Assembly (NCBI GenBank): GCA_016234735.1
Contig: JACRAN010000338.1
Coordinates: 11,441 to 75,440, forward strand
Length of the DNA stretch: 64,000 nt
DNA from: Bacteroidota bacterium
GTDB taxonomy: Bacteria > Bacteroidota > Bacteroidia > Chitinophagales > Saprospiraceae
Direction: 5' to 3'
Part shown: piece after piece, positions 13,388 to 56,164 of the stretch
Numbering within the stretch: the first letter of the stretch is position 1
Layout of the letters: each line of letters starts with the position of its first letter
Program-made: the position numbers and the translations under genes
The notes under the pieces: model-generated
What the model was told of the DNA's origin: nothing
Database searches by the model: none
What the model saw: the letters and a program-made list of their open reading frames with translations, nothing else

Positions 13388-13471
13388 TGCCGAAAGAGGG
13401 ACTCGAACCCTCACGCCCGTGAAGACACACGCCCCTGAAACGTGCGCGTCTACCAATTCCGCCATTTCGGC
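13388..13471 (-). tRNA. tRNA-Leu (anticodon CAG)
   Basis: The minus strand reads GCCGAAATGGCGGAATTGGTAGACGCGCACGTTTCAGGGGCGTG...GGTTCGAGTCCCTCTTTCGGCA. It has a 7-bp acceptor stem, a long variable arm, anticodon loop TTCAGGG and a T-loop GGTTCGAGTCC. CCA is not encoded. Confidence 0.9.
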
Positions 13472-13492
13472 TGGGGATAGTTTTGAGTTATG

Positions 13493-13549
13493 AGTTATGA
13501 GTTATGAGTTAGTGAGTTGATGTAACTCACTAACTCATAACTCATAACT
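13493..13549. repeat. 26-bp-stem tandem-word hairpin between the two tRNA-Leu genes
   Basis: (GAGTTAT)x3-GAGTTAGTGAGTT, loop gatgt, then AACTCACTAACTCATAACTCATAAC. The stem is perfect over 25-26 bp. Confidence 0.8.
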
Positions 13550-13563
13550 TCTAACCCCCAACG

Positions 13564-13646
13564 TACCGAAGGTGGGACTCGAACCCACACGTAGTTGCCT
13601 ACACTGGATTTTGAATCCAGCGCGTCTACCATTCCGCCACTTCGGC
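13564..13646 (-). tRNA. tRNA-Leu (anticodon CAA)
   Basis: The minus strand reads GCCGAAGTGGCGGAATGGTAGACGCGCTGGATTCAAAATCCAG...GGTTCGAGTCCCACCTTCGGTA. Anticodon loop is TTCAAAA, with a long variable arm. CCA is not encoded. Confidence 0.9.
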
Positions 13647-33868: not shown

Positions 33869-33939
33869 TTTTTCTTTCGCAAACAAAAAAGCCTGCTCCA
33901 CAAATCGTGGAGCAGGCTTTTTTGTTTGCGAAAGAAAAA
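33869..33939. terminator. bidirectional terminator with 33-bp perfect stem
   Basis: TTTTTCTTTCGCAAACAAAAAAGCCTGCTCCAC, loop aaatc, then GTGGAGCAGGCTTTTTTGTTTGCGAAAGAAAAA. It lies between convergent genes ending at 33861 and 33948. Confidence 0.8.
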
Positions 33940-33947
33940 ACTGAAAC

Positions 33948-39977: not shown

Positions 39978-40823
39978 CTAACGCTCGATAATCTGAATGG
40001 AAACGATTCGTTGCTCACTGTTTTGCGCCATCGACGGCTTGGCTTTCACTTCGATTTGCACTCGTCGTACCCCATGGTCAACGAGGTAGCGACGCACGGA
40101 GAGCGCACGGATTTCCGCCAACCGGACGGTCGAGGCCGCCTCCTCGTCAGGTGTCGAGTACCCGGTCAACAGCACTTTGTTTTCGGGGTTGTTGCGCAGC
40201 AATTTCCGCAGGCTGTCCAAGTAGGCAATGTTCTTTTTTTCGACTTTGAAATCCCCGTATTTATAGAAAAAAGTATGAGCGGGCGTTGGCTCTTCTGCCT
40301 CGACGGCATCTTGTTTTCCTTCATTAACTATTTGATTTTCAACAACTTGACTTGAATAAGAAAAATAGATGACCCCCACCAATTTACCATCGATTTTGAA
40401 AAAATTGCTGGCTTCCAAACTTTTCACCTGAATTTTTTCAGGGGGTGCCCCGCTGGTAGTGAGCATCGTTTTCACTGCTTCGGCCCTTGCAAGTCCGAGG
40501 TTGGGCCAAGGCGTTTCGTTGTATTCGTGCGGGCTGTAAATGCCGGTGATGGTCAGCATGACGCTGGCACTTTTTTGCAGGTTTCGGGCGACCGACTTGA
40601 TGGCAGGCAGGAGGTTTTCGGCGACGATGGGCGTGGCCCCTGAAAATTCAAAAGCAAAGGGATGCTGTACATCGTACCGCACACTGTCAATAAAAATACT
40701 GATGGGAGGAGGTTGGCCGGAGGCAGCGGCTGCCGTGTTTTTCCCTTCTGAAAAAATCCAGGTCCAACCTGACACCCAGAGGAAACAGGCTACCCCGGAC
40801 AAGTGTGGGAGTAGTTTGCTCAT
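39978..40823 (-). CDS. OmpA-like domain protein
   Basis: 281 aa. The C-terminal peptidoglycan-binding OmpA-like motif reads LLTGYSTPDEEAAS...LAEIRALSVRRYLVDHGV. Confidence 0.65.
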   Translation of the reverse strand: MSKLLPHLSGVACFLWVSGWTWIFSEGKNTAAAASGQPPPISIFIDSVRYDVQHPFAFEFSGATPIVAENLLPAIKSVARNLQKSASVMLTITGIYSPHEYNETPWPNLGLARAEAVKTMLTTSGAPPEKIQVKSLEASNFFKIDGKLVGVIYFSYSSQVVENQIVNEGKQDAVEAEEPTPAHTFFYKYGDFKVEKKNIAYLDSLRKLLRNNPENKVLLTGYSTPDEEAASTVRLAEIRALSVRRYLVDHGVRRVQIEVKAKPSMAQNSEQRIVSIQIIER

Positions 40824-40940
40824 AGTCAGGAAATTGTGTAGTTCAAATAGTAATCTCGGGTTAAAAGTAAAGTTTACAATTCAACCCGCCAAGAACGGTT
40901 TCCGGGAACGCCTGTATTTAAAAAAAGCAGTTATTTTAAA

Positions 40941-47473: not shown

Positions 47474-47548
47474 AAAAAAAAACTCCTACATCAAGGGAGG
47501 CAAAAGGCTGATGTAGGAGCACTAAACATACTATGAGAAAACTACACA
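47474..47548 (-). ncRNA. candidate small RNA, paralog 1 (conserved 20-mer + terminator hairpin)
   Basis: Minus strand: a TACTTTG -7-like box, then AGTTTTCTCATAGTATGTTTAGTG. An 11-bp stem follows (CTCCTACATCA/TGATGTAGGAG) whose loop contains CCTCCC, and then 9 T. Confidence 0.45.
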
Positions 47549-47591
47549 GCGCAAAGTAGCGTAATTCTGAACCTACAAAAAAGCTGCTTTT

Positions 47592-47644
47592 AGGAAACGG
47601 TCGCTTTGGTAAGGAAACGGTCGGTATGGTTTAGTAAATGGTAA
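47592..47644 (-). promoter_or_regulatory. phased direct repeats (candidate LytTR operator) upstream of paralog 1
   Basis: AGGAAACGGTCG occurs perfectly twice (47592-47603 and 47612-47623), with a degenerate third copy AGTAAATGGTAA (47633-47644). Start-to-start spacing is 20 and 21 bp. Confidence 0.5.
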
Positions 47645-47934
47645 TTTCAAATATCGACAGGTAAGATTTTCGGGCAGCGGAATGGATAGAATTCAGACTT
47701 CGTTCATTTTCAAGACAGAAGAAATATTATTTTTTATAATTTTTAACCTTCCGGCACAGAATTGGAAAAGTGGATAATCGTCTTACAAACTGAAAAAAAC
47801 AGGCTCAGGTTTCCAGTTCTGCAAATCACAATTCTTCCTTTAAACTTCACACCGAAGTCCGTTTTCAGGACTTGCAAACAATTCAATTTGGTCATCAATT
47901 TTGGTTGAAGCCATCACATCATTCAGGCCCTGAG

Positions 47935-48004
47935 AAAAAAATTCCTACACCCCAGAAGGGAAACAAAGGTGTAGGAGAATTAAACATACTATGAGAAAAC
48001 TAGA
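47935..48004 (-). ncRNA. candidate small RNA, paralog 2
   Basis: Minus strand: an exact TATCTTTG (TAnnTTTG) box, then AGTTTTCTCATAGTATGTTTAAT. A 9-bp stem follows (TCCTACACC/GGTGTAGGA) whose loop contains TCCCTTC, and then 7 T. Confidence 0.45.
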
Positions 48005-48066
48005 ATCAAAGATAAGACCAACAGTTTTCGGATAAAAGCTATATTTACGCACTGGAAGTTTTTTTA

Positions 48067-48120
48067 AGAAAACGGTAGGGTTCTTTGAGGAAACGGTAGT
48101 TCTTTTTCGATAAACGGAAT
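48067..48120 (-). promoter_or_regulatory. phased direct repeats (candidate LytTR operator) upstream of paralog 2
   Basis: Three copies: AGAAAACGGTAG (48067-48078), AGGAAACGGTAG (48088-48099) and a degenerate GATAAACGGAAT (48109-48120). Start-to-start spacing is exactly 21 bp. Confidence 0.5.
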
Positions 48121-48230
48121 TAATAATCTTAATAATCCTATCCTAAGTCAAAGACAATTTTACTTTTGCAAGGCTGATTAAAGCACTAAATTACTTTTGG
48201 CAACTACACACACATTTTGACCGGCAGGGC

Positions 48231-48303
48231 AAAAAAAATTCCCGCACCCCAGGAGGGACTAAAGGTGCAGGAAGATTAAACAAACATACTATGAGAAAAC
48301 TGT
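48231..48303 (-). ncRNA. candidate small RNA, paralog 3 (also the terminator of the kinase operon)
   Basis: Minus strand: an exact TATATTTG box 4 nt before AGTTTTCTCATAGTATGTTTGTTTAAT. A 10-bp stem follows (TTCCTGCACC/GGTGCGGGAA on minus, with one G-U) whose loop contains CCCTCC, and then 8 T. It begins about 55 nt after the HK stop. Confidence 0.45.
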
Positions 48304-48366
48304 GGCAAATATATTTTATTATTTTTAAATGATAAAATATTTTCACAGAAAAGGTCTTGAATTTCA

Positions 48367-50280
48367 TCACTTTATCTGAATATCCATGATGGGTATCAAG
48401 ACTTCGACTTTCGTTCCAAGTGCCTTGCCGGTTATTTCATCTTCCAAGTCAATGATTTGCACCGCTGTCAATTCAAGATTCCTTGATTGCAACAAGATTT
48501 GAAGCCTGTCCTGGGTAATCCTTGTGCCCATCGACTTGTGATCCTTGAAACCCGGATTTTTTTCCTGAAGCTCCCTGGCTTTCTTGCGGCCAATCCCGTC
48601 ATCTTCGACAATGCACAGAATGGTATTTTCGTCGTGGAAGGTAAATTCTACTTTGATAAGGCCTTTTTTCTTTGAACGGATACCGTGTTCGATTGCATTC
48701 TCCACATAAGGTTGGATAATCATGGTTGGAACACCGTAGATGTCCTCCTCTATTTCCTCATCGATAATTATTTGATACTCAAGTTGGTCCTCAAACCGCA
48801 AATTCATGTTGATTTCGAGGTAATTCCGAAGGAATTCGATTTCTTTTTCCAATGAAATGACTTCCAATTCCGAATATTCCAGGCTTTGCCGCATGAGGTG
48901 GGCAAACTGTGCGAGATACTTAGCTGCCTGCGCAGTGTCGTTGGAAGTGATGCAATTTTGAACAGAGTTCAAGGCATTGAAAACAAAGTGCGGGTTCATC
49001 TGTGCCCGCAAAGCCTTGAGTTGGAGGCCCGCAGCCTGGAGTTTGAACATCTCGGCTTCTTTTTCCTTTCGTTCGGCCGTGAATTTTATTTCAAGTTCCC
49101 TTATTTCCGTATTTTTTTCTTCAAACAGAAAACGTTCAACCGCCTGATTGTACAAAATCTGGTAGTCGTAGGCATTTTTAAAGTCAAGTTCCTTGGCATA
49201 CAAATCGGCAATGTTCTTCAAAATCCCGGTGGCTTGGCGGTAATCTTGTCCCTTCTTGGCAAATTCCAGGGCTTTGAAGTAGTGTTTGAGCGCCTTTTTT
49301 GCTTTCTCTTCTTCAAATATCTTAGCCCGCCACCACTCGATGTTAGCGAGATTTTTATCCCTTTTCTCTTTAAACAACGGGTAGGCCGTTGAAAAAAGCT
49401 CCAAAGCTTCCTTGTACTGCCGTTTGTTCAGGTAACAATATCCCAGATTTGCGTAGGCAATTGCCCGTGCCTGCTGGTTTACATCATCCACTACTTTGAT
49501 GGCTTTTCTAAAATACAGGCCGGCGTTGTCAAAATCCTGTATCGTCATGTAGCCATTGCCCACATTGAGGTAATGCCAGGATAGACGGGACCGCATGCCA
49601 TTTTTTTCACAAAAATCGACTACGTTCAGGTAGGCCTGAATACTCCGCTGTGGTTCATTAAGCAATCCGTAAATGGTACCTAAACCACTTTGAATCAGGG
49701 TGAAAAAATGAAAATCTTTCAAGTCAGGTGTACCTGCCAAATTCTGTATTTCAACTTCACAATCAAGAAATGCCTTGAGTGCTTTGGGGTAGTTTGCAAA
49801 CTTCAGATGGAAAAAGCCTTCCCTGCATATCAATCGAACCCGGAGCCGGTCATCGGGGAATGATTCGAGGTATTTGGAAGCCTGATTCAGGTAAAATCGT
49901 GCCCTGTCGGTTTGGTCGAGATTCAGCAAAGTGCCAGCGTAGTCAATGTAGGTTTCGGCCAATTGGTTGACATCCCCCCGCTCACCGAGAATTTCGAGGG
50001 CTAAACGAAAATGGATTTCGGATAGGTTATAATTGTACAGTTGGTTTTCTACCAGTGCCGTGTTCAGGTGGTAATTGAGGCGGATGTCAGGATGGTCGTA
50101 CTCCGCAAAGATTTCAAGGATTTCGGCCAGGTATTTCTGGGCTTTGGTAATGTCTGAAAAAACTAATTGTGAGGAGAGTTTGTCCAGCGTAGTGAGCCTT
50201 TGAAGGCGTTCGTCAATGAGATGCAGGTTAGATTCCAATTTGATAAGATTCTCGTTGGTATCTGGATAGGTGTGTATCAT
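48367..50280 (-). CDS. TPR-repeat sensor histidine kinase, LytS/YehU-type, no TM segment
   Basis: 637 aa from the ATG at 50280. About 400 aa of TPR-like repeats (e.g. YANLGYCYLNKRQYKEALELF) precede a coiled coil. The His_kinase motif is MNPHFVFNALNSV, and the HATPase has QPYVENAIEHGI ... VEDDGIG. I see no hydrophobic TM stretch or signal peptide. Confidence 0.85.
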   Translation of the reverse strand: MIHTYPDTNENLIKLESNLHLIDERLQRLTTLDKLSSQLVFSDITKAQKYLAEILEIFAEYDHPDIRLNYHLNTALVENQLYNYNLSEIHFRLALEILGERGDVNQLAETYIDYAGTLLNLDQTDRARFYLNQASKYLESFPDDRLRVRLICREGFFHLKFANYPKALKAFLDCEVEIQNLAGTPDLKDFHFFTLIQSGLGTIYGLLNEPQRSIQAYLNVVDFCEKNGMRSRLSWHYLNVGNGYMTIQDFDNAGLYFRKAIKVVDDVNQQARAIAYANLGYCYLNKRQYKEALELFSTAYPLFKEKRDKNLANIEWWRAKIFEEEKAKKALKHYFKALEFAKKGQDYRQATGILKNIADLYAKELDFKNAYDYQILYNQAVERFLFEEKNTEIRELEIKFTAERKEKEAEMFKLQAAGLQLKALRAQMNPHFVFNALNSVQNCITSNDTAQAAKYLAQFAHLMRQSLEYSELEVISLEKEIEFLRNYLEINMNLRFEDQLEYQIIIDEEIEEDIYGVPTMIIQPYVENAIEHGIRSKKKGLIKVEFTFHDENTILCIVEDDGIGRKKARELQEKNPGFKDHKSMGTRITQDRLQILLQSRNLELTAVQIIDLEDEITGKALGTKVEVLIPIMDIQIK

Positions 50281-50417: not shown

Positions 50418-50594
50418 TTATTGTGGCAACTCACCTTGGCAGGGAGCCGGACTGAAAAGCCCGGAAAAAAAGCCTTTTTTCCTAATTTCGCTGGCATTTT
50501 CATTGCCTCCCAGGAATTCGCCCATCTCAAATTTTTTCAATTGATTTAGGTCGTCGAGTTCACCGAGGTTCTTTTTTTTGGTAGTCCTCCCCAT
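50418..50594 (-). CDS. small precursor peptide with double-glycine (GG) leader
   Basis: MGRTTKKKNLGELDDLNQLKKFEMGEFLGG then NENASEIRKKGFFSGLFSPAPCQGELPQ. The leader has hydrophobic residues at -4, -7, -12 and -15, E at -8, and GG at -2/-1. An alternative in-frame ATG at 50630 would add 12 aa. The gene sits between the RR and HK genes. Confidence 0.6.
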   Translation of the reverse strand: MGRTTKKKNLGELDDLNQLKKFEMGEFLGGNENASEIRKKGFFSGLFSPAPCQGELPQ

Positions 50595-50844
50595 AGCATC
50601 TAAGTTTTGAGTGAAAAATCTGAAGTTCATAGTGTTCTCGTTTATTCTGACGAGTTAAAAGTATGTGCGTTCTCCGGTTCCAAAGATAGGGACTTTTCAG
50701 AGTATCCAAAGTCTCCCGACAAAAATTGTCTGTGTAGCCAAAGCCGGGCTGGATGTAGTTCGCCTCTCAAAAAATCCTACTTGGTTGCGGGTTGCCTCCC
50801 ACCAACACTTTTACTCTATCGGTTAAAAAATGTGTAAGTTACAT

Positions 50845-51654
50845 TTAAAGTGCCTCTTCCAACCTCCTCATTTGCTCCATGAAAGCCGGACGCCTCCTGC
50901 GCGAAACTTCGATTTTTTTGCCATCGTCCATCACAAGGTAGCCTCCATCACCTTTGATAAACTTCCGAATATAATTCAAATTGATCACGTGACGCTTGTG
51001 GACCCTGTAAAAATTCAAGACTTGTAGCATGTCCTCGTAGGCTTTGATGGTCTTGGATGCGGTAATCCGGTCACCGTTCGTCAGAAAAATATGGGTGTAA
51101 TTATCCTCGGCTTCAAACCGGACAATGTCTTTGATACTCACAAAGTAGATCCCATCCACTGCCGAAATACTCATTTTTTCAAAGGAATTCGGGTTGCTGA
51201 GTGCCTTGTTGAACAACTCTAGCCGCTCCTCAATCTTCTCGGAACGGTGCGCACGAATCCGGCTCACTGCCTGAACCAACTCATCGGGGTTGATGGGTTT
51301 CATGATGTAGCCGATGGAACTGTACTGGCAGGCTCGGATGGCGAATTCATTAAACGCAGTAATGAAAATGACCTCGAAATCAATGGGTTTCAATTCGTCA
51401 AGCATCTGGAAAATCAGACCATCGGGCAGGTTGATGTCAAGGAAGGCGACATCCGGCTTGAAATCAGGCTCCTCAAATAGTTCTAGCGCTTCCTCAATGT
51501 TCAGGGCATCGGCTACGACCTGAACCTCCGGGCAGTGATTGGCCAGGAGGTTTTTGAGGTTGTTCATGCTTTTGATTTCGTCTTCGACGATTAGCGCTTT
51601 GATCACGGGTATCGATTTACTGAGTTCCAAGGGCTGTGTTGGCATTTTTATCAT
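50845..51654 (-). CDS. LytTR-family response regulator
   Basis: 269 aa. The receiver domain has ALIVEDE and FLDINLPDG. The C-terminal LytTR DNA-binding domain has IVRFEAEDNYTHIF and FYRVHKRHVINLNYI. Confidence 0.9.
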   Translation of the reverse strand: MIKMPTQPLELSKSIPVIKALIVEDEIKSMNNLKNLLANHCPEVQVVADALNIEEALELFEEPDFKPDVAFLDINLPDGLIFQMLDELKPIDFEVIFITAFNEFAIRACQYSSIGYIMKPINPDELVQAVSRIRAHRSEKIEERLELFNKALSNPNSFEKMSISAVDGIYFVSIKDIVRFEAEDNYTHIFLTNGDRITASKTIKAYEDMLQVLNFYRVHKRHVINLNYIRKFIKGDGGYLVMDDGKKIEVSRRRRPAFMEQMRRLEEAL

Positions 51655-56128: not shown

Positions 56129-56164
56129 CCTTAGTTTTGCTGTGAGAAAAACACGTGAACAAAA

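Follow-up and report, generated by a model that had tools for sequence, protein, structure and literature searches.

Candidate small RNAs beside a LytTR signalling operon of Saprospiraceae, with predicted pairing to the start of the operon's peptide gene

A LytTR-family regulator drives a regulatory RNA that acts as the main effector in the agr system of Staphylococcus aureus (P3-RNAIII) and in the VirR/VirS system of Clostridium perfringens (VR-RNA, VirT, and VirU). In enterobacteria, the Hfq-dependent OmrA and OmrB are tandem paralogues activated by the two-component system EnvZ-OmpR, and they feed back on the regulator mRNA, while Qrr1 to Qrr5 of Vibrio quorum sensing (Gammaproteobacteria), also Hfq dependent and transcribed from sigma-54/LuxO promoters, have an absolutely conserved stretch of about 32 nt and four stem-loops. 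We know of no sRNA layer in the ComCDE, BlpRHC, and PlnABCD peptide systems of Firmicutes.

Bacteroidota rarely use Shine-Dalgarno sequences and, to our knowledge, have neither Hfq nor ProQ and use other RNA-binding proteins. The few sRNAs that we know of in this phylum come nearly all from gut Bacteroides, none of them tied to a LytTR system, and we know of no conserved sRNA family described for the Saprospiraceae, an abundant family of activated sludge, lakes, and marine particles. A literature search on the motif described below and on LytTR, sRNA, or peptide systems of this phylum or family returned nothing relevant.

Here, we analyze a 64-kb stretch of DNA (the window) from an uncultured member of the Saprospiraceae (Bacteroidota). 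The reading that we favor, and that the sequence comparisons make moderately probable, is that it encodes members of a Saprospiraceae family of base-pairing sRNAs, which would be activated by a LytTR regulator and repress translation of a peptide encoded in the same operon as this regulator.

Anatomy and conservation of the modules

The first-pass annotation of this DNA had described three paralogous modules on the minus strand, each made up of a -7-like box, a 20-mer, a hairpin, and a U-run, and all of these elements were recovered. The 20-mer, AGTTTTCTCATAGTATGTTT, occurs exactly three times in the 64-kb window, always on the minus strand, against a chance expectation of 0; no further match with up to three mismatches was found in the 64 kb, and none was found in 100 shuffles. 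The modules and the neighboring kinase gene are as follows.

48367-50280, minus strand: sensor histidine kinase, 637 aa, with N-terminal TPR repeats and the His_kinase domain PF06580 (LytS/LytT type); 100% identical to P0001
48306-48313, minus strand: putative -7-type promoter box TATATTTG of copy A, 4 nt before the 20-mer, with AT-rich DNA upstream
48231-48301, minus strand: candidate sRNA copy A (type 1), with the 20-mer at 48301-48282, the hairpin CCUGCACC/GGUGCGGG, the loop core CCCUCC, and U8; 74.6 bits with covariance model R1
48007-48014, minus strand: putative -7 box TATCTTTG of copy B, 5 nt before the 20-mer
47935-48001, minus strand: candidate sRNA copy B (type 2), with the 20-mer at 48001-47982, the hairpin CCUACACC/GGUGUAGG, a loop containing UUUCCCUUC (core CCCUUC), and U7; 81 bits with R1
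47552-47558, minus strand: -7-like box TACTTTG of copy C, 8 nt before the 20-mer and one base shorter than TAnnTTTG
47474-47543, minus strand: candidate sRNA copy C (type 3), with the 20-mer at 47543-47524, the hairpin CUCCUACAUCA/UGAUGUAGGAG, the loop core GCCUCCC, and U9; 78.5 bits with R1

By consensus match, a TAnnTTTG-type box precedes the 20-mer by 4 to 8 nt, both in the three copies and in the consensus of the orthologues. The hairpins that follow the 20-mers have 11 to 13 bp, continue into 7 to 9 U, and fold at -17 to -18.9 kcal/mol (z-scores of -2.9 to -4.1 for the three copies), with the 5' 25 nt or so single stranded in all predicted folds and a predicted RNA length of 67 to 71 nt. 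The compensatory differences between the stems of the copies, also pointed out previously, are real, and the wobble noticed with them is a U.G pair in the copy A stem that forms only in the minus-strand RNA. Since a conserved GUGU directly precedes the 20-mer of copy C, the transcript of this copy probably starts 2 to 4 nt earlier. A separate observation is that the copy C terminator abuts the stop codon (47471) of a convergent PBP1C-like gene. Copy A had moreover been taken for the terminator of the kinase operon; its hairpin is indeed the sole terminator-like site between the kinase stop codon (48367) and the next module, which makes termination of the operon at this point plausible.

In 49 of 80 species-level genomes, the 20-mer, essentially invariant, was found just 3' of the kinase orthologue; together, these genomes hold 112 modules of the same anatomy, with one to three copies per genome and three recognizable types, always downstream of the kinase gene and on its strand. 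Culturable carriers include Phaeodactylibacter xiamenensis KD52 (locus L056), with two modules, and Haliscomenobacter hydrossis DSM 1100 (locus L076), with one. The position and order of the modules are fixed among genomes with 43 to 84% kinase identity, and the 20-mer is retained even at 43 to 55%. The stem covaries: 94% of the cells are paired, compared to 35 to 46% in slid controls, double changes occur in 9 of 10 pairs, and none of 500 shuffles scored as high. Furthermore, G.U pairs in the stem outnumber A.C mismatches by 62 to 17, which fits the minus strand as the RNA strand. The suggestion of a family of small sRNAs of about 65 to 75 nt thus finds support in the number of modules, in their covarying stem, and in the lack of a conserved ORF on either strand.

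As for the last point, the minus-strand ORFs within the modules (MFV*, 12 aa, and 22 aa) are not conserved, and the plus-strand MRK.. ORFs, which the first-pass annotation had named as an alternative, are short (215 of 304 have fewer than 20 aa) and mutually unrelated; we therefore rejected small-ORF readings on both strands. An ATG does lie within the 20-mer on each strand, and the units are short repeated hairpins, as they would be if the modules encoded tiny peptides (minus strand, MFV..; plus strand, MRKL..) or were functionless repeated terminators or elements of REP or MITE type. We consider such an origin very improbable: only three copies occur in 64 kb, their position and order are fixed over the range of kinase identity given above, and they have their own putative promoter and positioned repeats. 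The copies keep to a small number of set positions, downstream of the kinase gene and, for one further type, next to prs, and do not look like a generic repeat scattered over the genome.

About 30 orthologous kinase loci have no module within 5 kb. Covariance model R1, run on the window and 37 loci (including L059 and 29 of the 30 loci that lacked a core match), detected no diverged copies in module-less loci, and a k-mer search downstream of the module-less kinase genes gave no alternative common motif; judging from these searches, the sRNA genes are absent from these loci or more than 5 kb away. The metagenome 18-mer matches without a hairpin (L083, L084, L089, L126, L135, L155, L170, L183, L186, and L197) share neither an ORF nor a context and are probably chance matches or decayed copies. 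A scan against Rfam 15 at the gathering threshold found only two tRNAs in the window and no family for the modules, which lie outside the curated families; in a permissive search, the best match in the region was Pseudomon-1/ErsA, scoring 24.3 bits where 50 are required (E = 0.03).

Direct repeats upstream of the modules and the LytTR regulator

Known LytTR sites are 9-bp direct repeats, e.g., ACCACTTAC or ACCGCTTAT, with a 12-bp spacer and located about 10 bp before the -35 element (PMC6193735), and the AlgR core is CCGTTCGTC (PMC4064291). Three to four direct repeats, tACCGTTtCCTAA, with a period of about 21 bp occur upstream of copies B and C and of most orthologues.

50845-51654, minus strand: response regulator, 269 aa, with the receiver domain PF00072 and the LytTR DNA-binding domain PF04397
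48048-48118, minus strand: four direct repeats at the copy B promoter, starting at 48118, 48097, 48076, and 48056; predicted LytTR regulator sites
47593-47642, minus strand: three direct repeats at the copy C promoter, starting at 47642, 47621, and 47601; predicted LytTR regulator sites

The copy B repeats read, in order, TCCGTTTAT, ACCGTTTCC, ACCGTTTTC, and TCCAGTGCG (periods of 21, 21, and 20 bp; 39 bits), and those of copy C read ACCATTTAC, ACCGTTTCC, and ACCGTTTCC (49.9 bits, the top site in the window). Repeats of about 9 bp at a period of 20 to 21 bp agree with the spacing of 11 to 13 bp that we looked for in a LytTR promoter, as does the placement of the last repeat about 10 bp upstream of the -35 equivalent in both copies: 10 bp before TTTTTTG (-33-like) in copy C and 10 bp before a T-rich -33-like element in copy B. 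A regulator with PF04397 and PF00072 is encoded nearby and conserved beside the kinase, the two genes adjoining each other in 62 of 80 genome loci, most of the others having too little upstream flank. We thus predict, from gene adjacency and site architecture, that the repeats are sites of the LytTR regulator of the adjacent operon. Neither these repeats of copies B and C nor the operon's peptide gene was mentioned in the first-pass account.

Across loci, the CC[AG][CT]T boxes are phased at -95/-74/-53 in types 1 and 2 and at -98/-77/-56 in type 3, with an occupancy of up to 48% per position compared to a background of 0.4% per nt (consensus tACCgtTtnCTAA). Triple boxes of at least 25 bits in 200 loci occur 94 times upstream of modules and once elsewhere, double boxes of at least 20 bits in 1.7 Mb occur 53 times upstream of modules and twice elsewhere, and promoters B and C of the window reach 39 to 50 bits, compared to at most 9.5 everywhere else in the window, a specificity that is partly circular because the matrix was trained on module promoters. 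In the metagenome loci, which lie outside the training set, 51 of 184 modules reach at least 25 bits. A fourth module type, which adjoins prs at a distance from the operon, also bears the repeats.

LytTR-like repeats were not found upstream of the peptide, regulator, or kinase genes in the window and related loci, and for this reason we rejected transcriptional auto-induction of the operon. They are also absent upstream of copy A in the clade of the window; in the window and its close relatives, this copy may be constitutive or made via read-through from the kinase gene.

The operon peptide and the predicted pairing with its start

A small gene lies between the regulator and kinase genes, and a peptide gene was found in this gap in 79 of 79 loci.

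50418-50594, minus strand: small peptide gene, 58 aa from the conserved MG(K/R) start
50582-50600, minus strand: predicted pairing site of the sRNA 5' end, GAUGCUAUGGGGAGGACUA, covering the AUG (50594-50592) of the peptide mRNA

An alternative in-frame ATG at 50630 would give a peptide of 70 aa. The sequence is MGRTTKKKNLGELDDLNQLKKFEMGEFLGG followed by NENASEIRKKGFFSGLFSPAPCQGELPQ, and its N-terminal part is like a double-glycine leader (L..L...EM....GG). GG-leader models stayed below their cut-offs (TIGR04149, 16 bits with a cut-off of 25; TIGR01847, 12.5 with 15.7; LcnG-beta, 16.5 with 29.4), and the peptide of the window itself matched none of the GG-leader families TIGR01847, TIGR04149, and ComC PF03047; by sequence, it resembles a double-glycine leader and is not a family member. 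A scan of 14 flanking ORFs in the window detected no C39-peptidase ABC exporter domain.

Target prediction, which the first-pass annotation had suggested for the C-rich loop and the 20-mer, gave a conserved partner for the 20-mer only. In the window, the duplex at the peptide start (-16.9 kcal/mol) is made up of 16 bp, 4 of them G.U, with one bulge, and this is the top non-self site in 128 kb of searched strand. The top seed duplex in each gap of about 600 nt covers the start codon of the peptide in 69 of 79 loci (mean of -15.9 kcal/mol), which are related by descent and do not represent 69 independent events, whereas with 40 shuffled seeds, the mean was -11.3 (best, -12.95) and on average 7.8 of the 79 loci, at most 17, had the start covered. 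An invariant seed that is unpaired in the folds is matched by a conserved complementary mRNA site, at 69 loci against about 8 for shuffled seeds. Positions 3 to 16 of the sRNA form the duplex with the consensus start region, AUACUAUG(G/A)GAAAA, and the pairing is weaker in the clade of the window (4 G.U pairs and the bulge) than elsewhere, where 14 contiguous pairs are found. Many module-less loci still keep the complementary peptide start; L060, L070, L075, and L080 have neither.

Because a double-stranded site reads alike in either orientation, the complementarity at the peptide start could also be a shared DNA site. The 20-bp element would then be an operator that occupies +1 to +20 in several promoters and has one further occurrence within the peptide gene, with the transcripts as by-products, and the palindrome CATA-N-TATG within the 20-mer would suit it. 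We regard this explanation as decidedly improbable, since substitutions at the core A positions of the peptide start are mostly A to G, by which RNA pairing is kept through G.U; moreover, the match runs asymmetrically past the palindrome, and each copy has behind it, at a short and constant spacing, a covarying terminator that an operator does not need.

The C-rich loop had been proposed as the seed of the sRNAs. It is kept in 83 of 97 distinct modules and lost in some, but we found no conserved partner for it, and the 5' 20-mer, the most constrained part of the RNA, is the likelier seed. The copy C loop, UUGCCUCCC, matches GGGAGGCAA at 50511-50503 in the window with perfect complementarity over 9 nt; as the codons for Gly-Gly are free to differ from locus to locus (GGAGGT, GGTGGT, GGGGGT, and others), this pairing is not conserved and was rejected.

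All 20 nt of the 20-mer are conserved and about 14 of them pair with the peptide mRNA, so that other partners or constraints must exist. It is possible to hypothesize that the sRNAs are real and LytTR controlled but act mainly on other mRNAs encoded elsewhere in the genome, using the 20-mer, the C-rich loops, or both, and that their match to the peptide start is secondary or a trace left by the origin of the genes. The retention of loops without a conserved partner and the fourth module type, with its repeats far from the operon, point in this direction, and in the window, start-region sites at -15 to -16 kcal/mol occur in an OmpA-family gene and a TPR-CHAT gene. However, these two sites are known from a single genome and the peptide start is the top site in most gaps, and we hold this possibility to be unlikely, although worth keeping in view. 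The conservation beyond the needs of a single mRNA site, the several paralogous copies per genome, and the use by Bacteroidota, as far as we know, of RNA-binding proteins other than Hfq and ProQ could also suggest that the 20-mer and the C-rich loop bind a protein, the RNAs serving as a sponge or decoy like CsrB/RsmZ. This is improbable in our view, because each RNA has one copy of the motif, different from known sponges, and protein binding would not account for their specific complementarity to the start codon of a gene in this operon.

For the repression of the operon's own peptide, which we prefer, the anatomy and conservation of the modules, the covariation of their stems, the positioned repeats and their restriction to sRNA promoters, and the complementarity at the peptide start are the observations from which we infer transcription, binding by this regulator, the sign of the regulation, and the role of the peptide. 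Each module would be transcribed into a trans-acting sRNA of about 67 to 74 nt from a promoter of the Bacteroidota sigma-A type (T-rich -33 element and -7 TAnnTTTG), with transcription beginning at or just before the invariant AGUUUUCUCAUAGUAUGUUU and stopping at the intrinsic terminator. The phosphorylated LytTR regulator would activate copies B and C, and in other clades also copy A, by binding the 21-bp-phased repeats ahead of them, from which it follows in this proposal that the sRNAs would be the main direct output of the two-component system. The single-stranded 5' end would then pair with the translation start region of the GG-leader-like peptide gene and occlude the AUG, so that less peptide is made and a negative feedback loop results; further mRNAs may also be targets.

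A broader scenario, which we put forward only tentatively and consider doubtful as a whole, is a four-part cassette of Saprospiraceae in which a LytTR regulator, a GG-leader-like peptide, a soluble TPR kinase that perhaps senses the peptide intracellularly, and one to four sRNAs act together, the sRNAs being the sole direct transcriptional output and masking the peptide start codon as feedback. If so, a Gram-negative phylum without Hfq and ProQ would possess a peptide-based circuit that resembles quorum sensing and has RNA at its core.

Comparison with described systems

Our analysis suggests that a peptide-signalling circuit of Bacteroidota contains a feedback loop through RNA that has not been described before. 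If true, LytTR systems outside Firmicutes also work through regulatory RNAs, and peptide signalling with an apparently cytoplasmic TPR kinase would be indicated in a phylum where it is not established. Twenty nucleotides that are invariant across a bacterial family, together with a predicted regulator site and target in one locus, make a complete and cheaply testable regulon prediction, and the covariance model and box matrix can be used to annotate such sRNA genes in metagenomes.

With the RsaE/RoxS-type sRNAs (UCCC loops), the modules share a C-rich motif exposed in a hairpin loop. However, there is no Rfam match, the motif is in the terminator loop and lost in some members, and the most constrained part is the 5' 20-mer.

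The ComCDE, BlpRHC, and PlnABCD systems of Firmicutes likewise combine a GG-leader peptide, a histidine kinase, and an adjacent LytTR regulator, with 9-bp repeats and 12-bp spacers. Different from these systems, whose kinases are polytopic membrane receptors, no membrane segment was predicted in the kinase considered here, and its peptide reaches only sub-threshold scores against GG-leader models. Moreover, the repeats are absent from the peptide and operon promoters, so that no transcriptional auto-induction is predicted.

Like Qrr1 to Qrr5, the modules are several paralogues with a conserved stretch, driven, as we predict, by a response regulator, with a gene beside the regulator gene and feedback within the circuit, but they have no sequence relation to them. 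The likeness to OmrA and OmrB lies in the identical 5' ends, the differing bodies, and the predicted feedback pairing near a start codon in their own signalling operon; the sequences are unrelated, the regulator is of the LytTR and not of the OmpR family, and the target would be the peptide gene instead of the regulator mRNA.

In agr and VirR/VirS, as predicted for our locus, the LytTR-family regulator binds direct repeats located shortly before the promoter of a regulatory RNA encoded in or beside the signalling locus (architecture as in PMC6193735). The modules are related to these RNAs neither in sequence nor in structure, as no Rfam family reaches its threshold, and they have about 70 nt and a single hairpin compared to the 514 nt of RNAIII. 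Furthermore, the arrangement described here belongs to Bacteroidota and features three to four paralogues, three to four repeats instead of two, a TPR kinase without a predicted membrane segment, and, as the predicted target, the peptide gene of the system itself.

Minus-strand modules and their conservation

The 20-mer AGTTTTCTCATAGTATGTTT occurs three times in the window, in each case as an exact match, and no further copy was found in the 64 kb with up to three mismatches allowed, nor any in 100 shuffles. The three copies are immediately downstream of a group of minus-strand genes made up of a regulator, a 565-bp gap and a kinase, in a contig that the best protein matches assign to an uncultured member of the Saprospiraceae:

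50845-51654, minus strand: LytTR response regulator (PF00072 and PF04397)
48367-50280, minus strand: sensor kinase of 637 aa, with TPR and His_kinase (PF06580) domain matches
48301-48282, minus strand: 20-mer of copy A
48001-47982, minus strand: 20-mer of copy B
47543-47524, minus strand: 20-mer of copy C

Bacteroidota-type -7 boxes (TATATTTG in A, TATCTTTG in B and TACTTTG in C) precede the 20-mers by 4-8 nt, and a hairpin of 11-13 bp followed by 7-9 U is located 3' of each, with energies of -17 to -18.9 kcal/mol and z-scores of -2.9 to -4.1. Folding leaves the 5' ~25 nt unpaired, and the predicted RNAs are 67-71 nt long. The first-pass annotation had reported compensatory stem differences between the copies and a U.G pair confined to the minus-strand RNA, and both are present as described. 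Copy A starts 66 nt past the kinase stop, where its hairpin is the sole terminator-like structure, and copy C has its terminator immediately next to the stop codon of a PBP1C-like gene in convergent orientation. No Rfam family matched the modules, the only Rfam matches in the window being two tRNA genes (13388-13646, minus strand). A weak match to the covariance model of the module at 33882-33942, minus strand (19 bits, E = 0.11), contains no 20-mer and probably represents no more than a terminator hairpin.

A species-level scan (one genome per species, with the kinase-orthologue alignment as query) yielded 80 kinase loci from the Saprospiraceae, Lewinellaceae and Haliscomenobacter group. The regulator gene adjoins the kinase in 62 of them, the upstream flank being too short to tell in most others. 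In 49 of the 80, the 20-mer, exact or with one to three terminal bases different, is found on the same strand within ~2.5 kb downstream of the kinase, even at a kinase protein identity of only 43-55%. Three copies are present in 22 of these loci, two in 16 and one in 11, and they belong to three orthologous types, recurring in constant order, to which copies A, B and C correspond:

Type 1: stem CCUGCACC, loop CCCUCC
Type 2: stem CCUACACC, loop CCCUUC
Type 3: GUGU before the 20-mer, stem CUCCUACAUC, loop GCCUCC

Across 97 aligned distinct modules, 16 positions among the first 17 of the sRNA show no variation or a conservation of at least 90%. Furthermore, 94% of the alignment cells in the stem are paired, with changes on both sides in nine of ten pairs, values that none of 500 shuffles reached (slid controls gave 35-46% pairing), and the excess of G.U pairs over A.C mismatches (62 versus 17) fits transcription of the minus strand. 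No -7 box could be recognised for two copies that begin TGTTTTCTC directly after the kinase stop (L015:6985 and L040:7080), and their hairpins are weak or of another kind; both resemble type 1 copies that are decaying or depend on read-through.

A metagenome scan with the 18-mer core added 120 stretches, many with the kinase and many others with complete modules but neither kinase nor regulator within several kb. The commonest kinase-less module, type 4 (stem CCUACUGC/GCAGUAGG, loop CCCUUC; L095:924-994, minus strand, and 23 other metagenome loci, e.g., L113, L124, L128 and L136), is preceded by two repeats, gCCGTTcCc-12 bp-gCCGTTcCgTAAA, and in 17 of 24 cases lies 90-310 bp from a prs gene; for one of these contigs, the best matches of the Prs protein are in the Saprospiraceae. 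With modules behind the kinase and type 4 near prs, the family therefore forms a small set of several copies that occupy a few fixed places in the genome, and is not the generic genome-wide repeat that the first-pass annotation had considered as a contrary outcome. A functionless repeat or tiny ORFs would be an alternative reading; synteny, copy number and promoters oppose both, and no conserved ORF was found. We consider it very probable that the modules are sRNA genes, forming a real, strongly conserved and apparently undescribed family.

Direct repeats at the sRNA promoters

Copies B and C are preceded by direct repeats with a 20-21-bp period (TCCGTTTAT, ACCGTTTCC, ACCGTTTTC and TCCAGTGCG for B; ACCATTTAC, ACCGTTTCC and ACCGTTTCC for C); in both, 10 bp separate the end of the last repeat from a T-rich -33-like element. 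In the window and in close relatives, copy A is without repeats, which are present at its counterparts in genomes that are more distant. Over all modules, CC[AG][CT]T boxes peak at -95, -74 and -53 in types 1 and 2 and at -98, -77 and -56 in type 3, with a per-position occupancy that reaches 48%, the background being 0.4% per nt (consensus, tACCgtTtnCTAA).

A matrix built from these repeats found triple boxes of at least 25 bits upstream of a module 94 times and elsewhere once in 200 loci, and double boxes of at least 20 bits 53 times and twice, respectively, in 1.7 Mb, a specificity that is partly circular because the matrix was trained on the genome-locus modules. Among the metagenome modules, which were outside the training set, 51 of 184 still reach at least 25 bits. 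In the window, triple boxes score 39-50 bits at the B and C promoters and at most 9.5 bits elsewhere. No such repeats were found upstream of the regulator, peptide or kinase genes. These counts show the predicted sites to be restricted to sRNA promoters.

LytTR-family sites consist of direct repeats of 9 bp, for example ACCACTTAC or ACCGCTTAT, with a spacing of 12 bp (11 or 13 in some cases), and are usually located 10 bp before the -35 element (PMC6193735), and the AlgR core is CCGTTCGTC (PMC4064291). Judged from sequence, the arrangement of the module repeats is that of LytTR-family sites, and the adjacent LytTR regulator is likely to drive the sRNA genes.

The peptide gene and its predicted pairing

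A small ORF occupies the regulator-kinase gap in all 79 loci with both genes. Its product, commonly MGKSKKNLDDLKKDLKTIKKGDMKKIVGG|KKGKNKNWNNGCGGIVPQ, has an N-terminal part that resembles a double-glycine leader, with sub-threshold scores only against curated GG-leader models, and a C terminus ending in (I/L/V)PQ; WNNGCGGIVPQ is common to most lineages, and the clade of the window has GFFSGLFSPAPCQGELPQ instead.

50594-50418, minus strand: peptide gene, MGRTTKKKNLGELDDLNQLKKFEMGEFLGG|NENASEIRKKGFFSGLFSPAPCQGELPQ (alternative start at 50630)
50600-50582, minus strand: predicted pairing site, masking the AUG

A TATCTTTG box at 50681-50688 (minus strand), 87 nt upstream of the MG start and with no LytTR-like repeats before it, may be the gene's own promoter, which would imply a leader of ~80 nt.

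Positions 3-16 of the sRNA are a complement of the peptide start region (consensus, AUACUAUG(G/A)GAAAA). In 69 of 79 loci, the best 20-mer duplex in the ~600-nt gap covers the start codon of the peptide gene (mean, -15.9 kcal/mol), compared with an average of 7.8 and a maximum of 17 loci for 40 shuffled seeds (mean, -11.3; best, -12.95), although such counts are not independent events because the loci are related. In the window, the duplex has 16 bp, four of them G.U pairs, with one bulge (-16.9 kcal/mol), and is the best site window-wide, the opposite strands of the sRNA genes themselves aside. A chance origin of a contiguous ~14-nt complement between two separately conserved elements of one locus is unlikely.

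The 20-mer could alternatively be a DNA operator that the peptide gene has in common with the sRNA genes. Where a core position calls for A to be perfectly complementary, the usual replacement is G, so that a G.U pair is retained (position -3 is A in 42 sequences, G in 23 and another base in 2); this pattern favours RNA-level pairing over a shared DNA site, but is confounded by coding and initiation preferences. The RNAs could also act by binding a protein, or their main targets could lie elsewhere. The latter is suggested by the conservation of the full 20 nt and of the C-rich loops beyond what the peptide site accounts for, and by two more start-region sites in the window, the next-best for the 20-mer: 40812-40830 (minus strand, -15.1 kcal/mol), covering the start codon of an OmpA-family gene, and 56137-56151 (plus strand, -16.2 kcal/mol), 14-28 nt upstream of where a gene for a TPR-CHAT protein starts. 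On balance, we lean towards the peptide start region as a physiological target of the sRNAs.

The loop of copy C (UUGCCUCCC, ~47495-47503) is also perfectly complementary over 9 nt to the peptide mRNA around its Gly-Gly codons (GGGAGGCAA, 50503-50511, minus strand), a pairing that is probably not conserved, since these codons vary among loci. In four loci of the Lewinella cohaerens group (L060, L070, L075 and L080), the peptide starts with MAKDK, the start region lacks complementarity with the 20-mer (-7.9 to -11.4 kcal/mol) and no sRNA module was found within 5 kb; sRNA and target site may have been lost jointly.

A putative feedback circuit and known systems

We propose that the TPR kinase phosphorylates the regulator, which would then bind the repeats and switch on sRNA transcription, and that the sRNA 5' end would pair over the AUG of the peptide mRNA and reduce its translation, with negative feedback as the outcome. 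Bacteroidota rarely use Shine-Dalgarno pairing, so masking of the start codon should suffice. The kinase has no hydrophobic segment (maximum 19-residue hydropathy of 1.0-1.45 in 14 orthologues, that of the window and 13 others), and its TPR domain is therefore probably cytoplasmic; a cytoplasmic sensor, as it probably is, would be unusual for a kinase encoded beside a leader-type peptide. The peptide might be either exported and then re-imported, or active inside the cell.

The sRNA family comes with a testable regulator and a testable target. None of the papers found in a literature search mentions the motif or such a system. AgrA-RNAIII and VirR with VR-RNA, VirT and VirU are functionally alike as LytTR-driven regulatory RNAs, OmrA/B and Qrr as tandem paralogous sRNAs that are activated by two-component systems and feed back on their own system, and the Gram-positive peptide-pheromone cassettes ComCDE, Blp and Pln have a similar gene neighbourhood; neither the modules nor the peptide belong to any of these families by sequence or structure. 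Different from these systems, the one described here occurs in another phylum, employs short single-hairpin RNAs and an apparently soluble TPR kinase, lacks repeats at the operon promoter, and features three to four repeats in place of two and a different predicted target.
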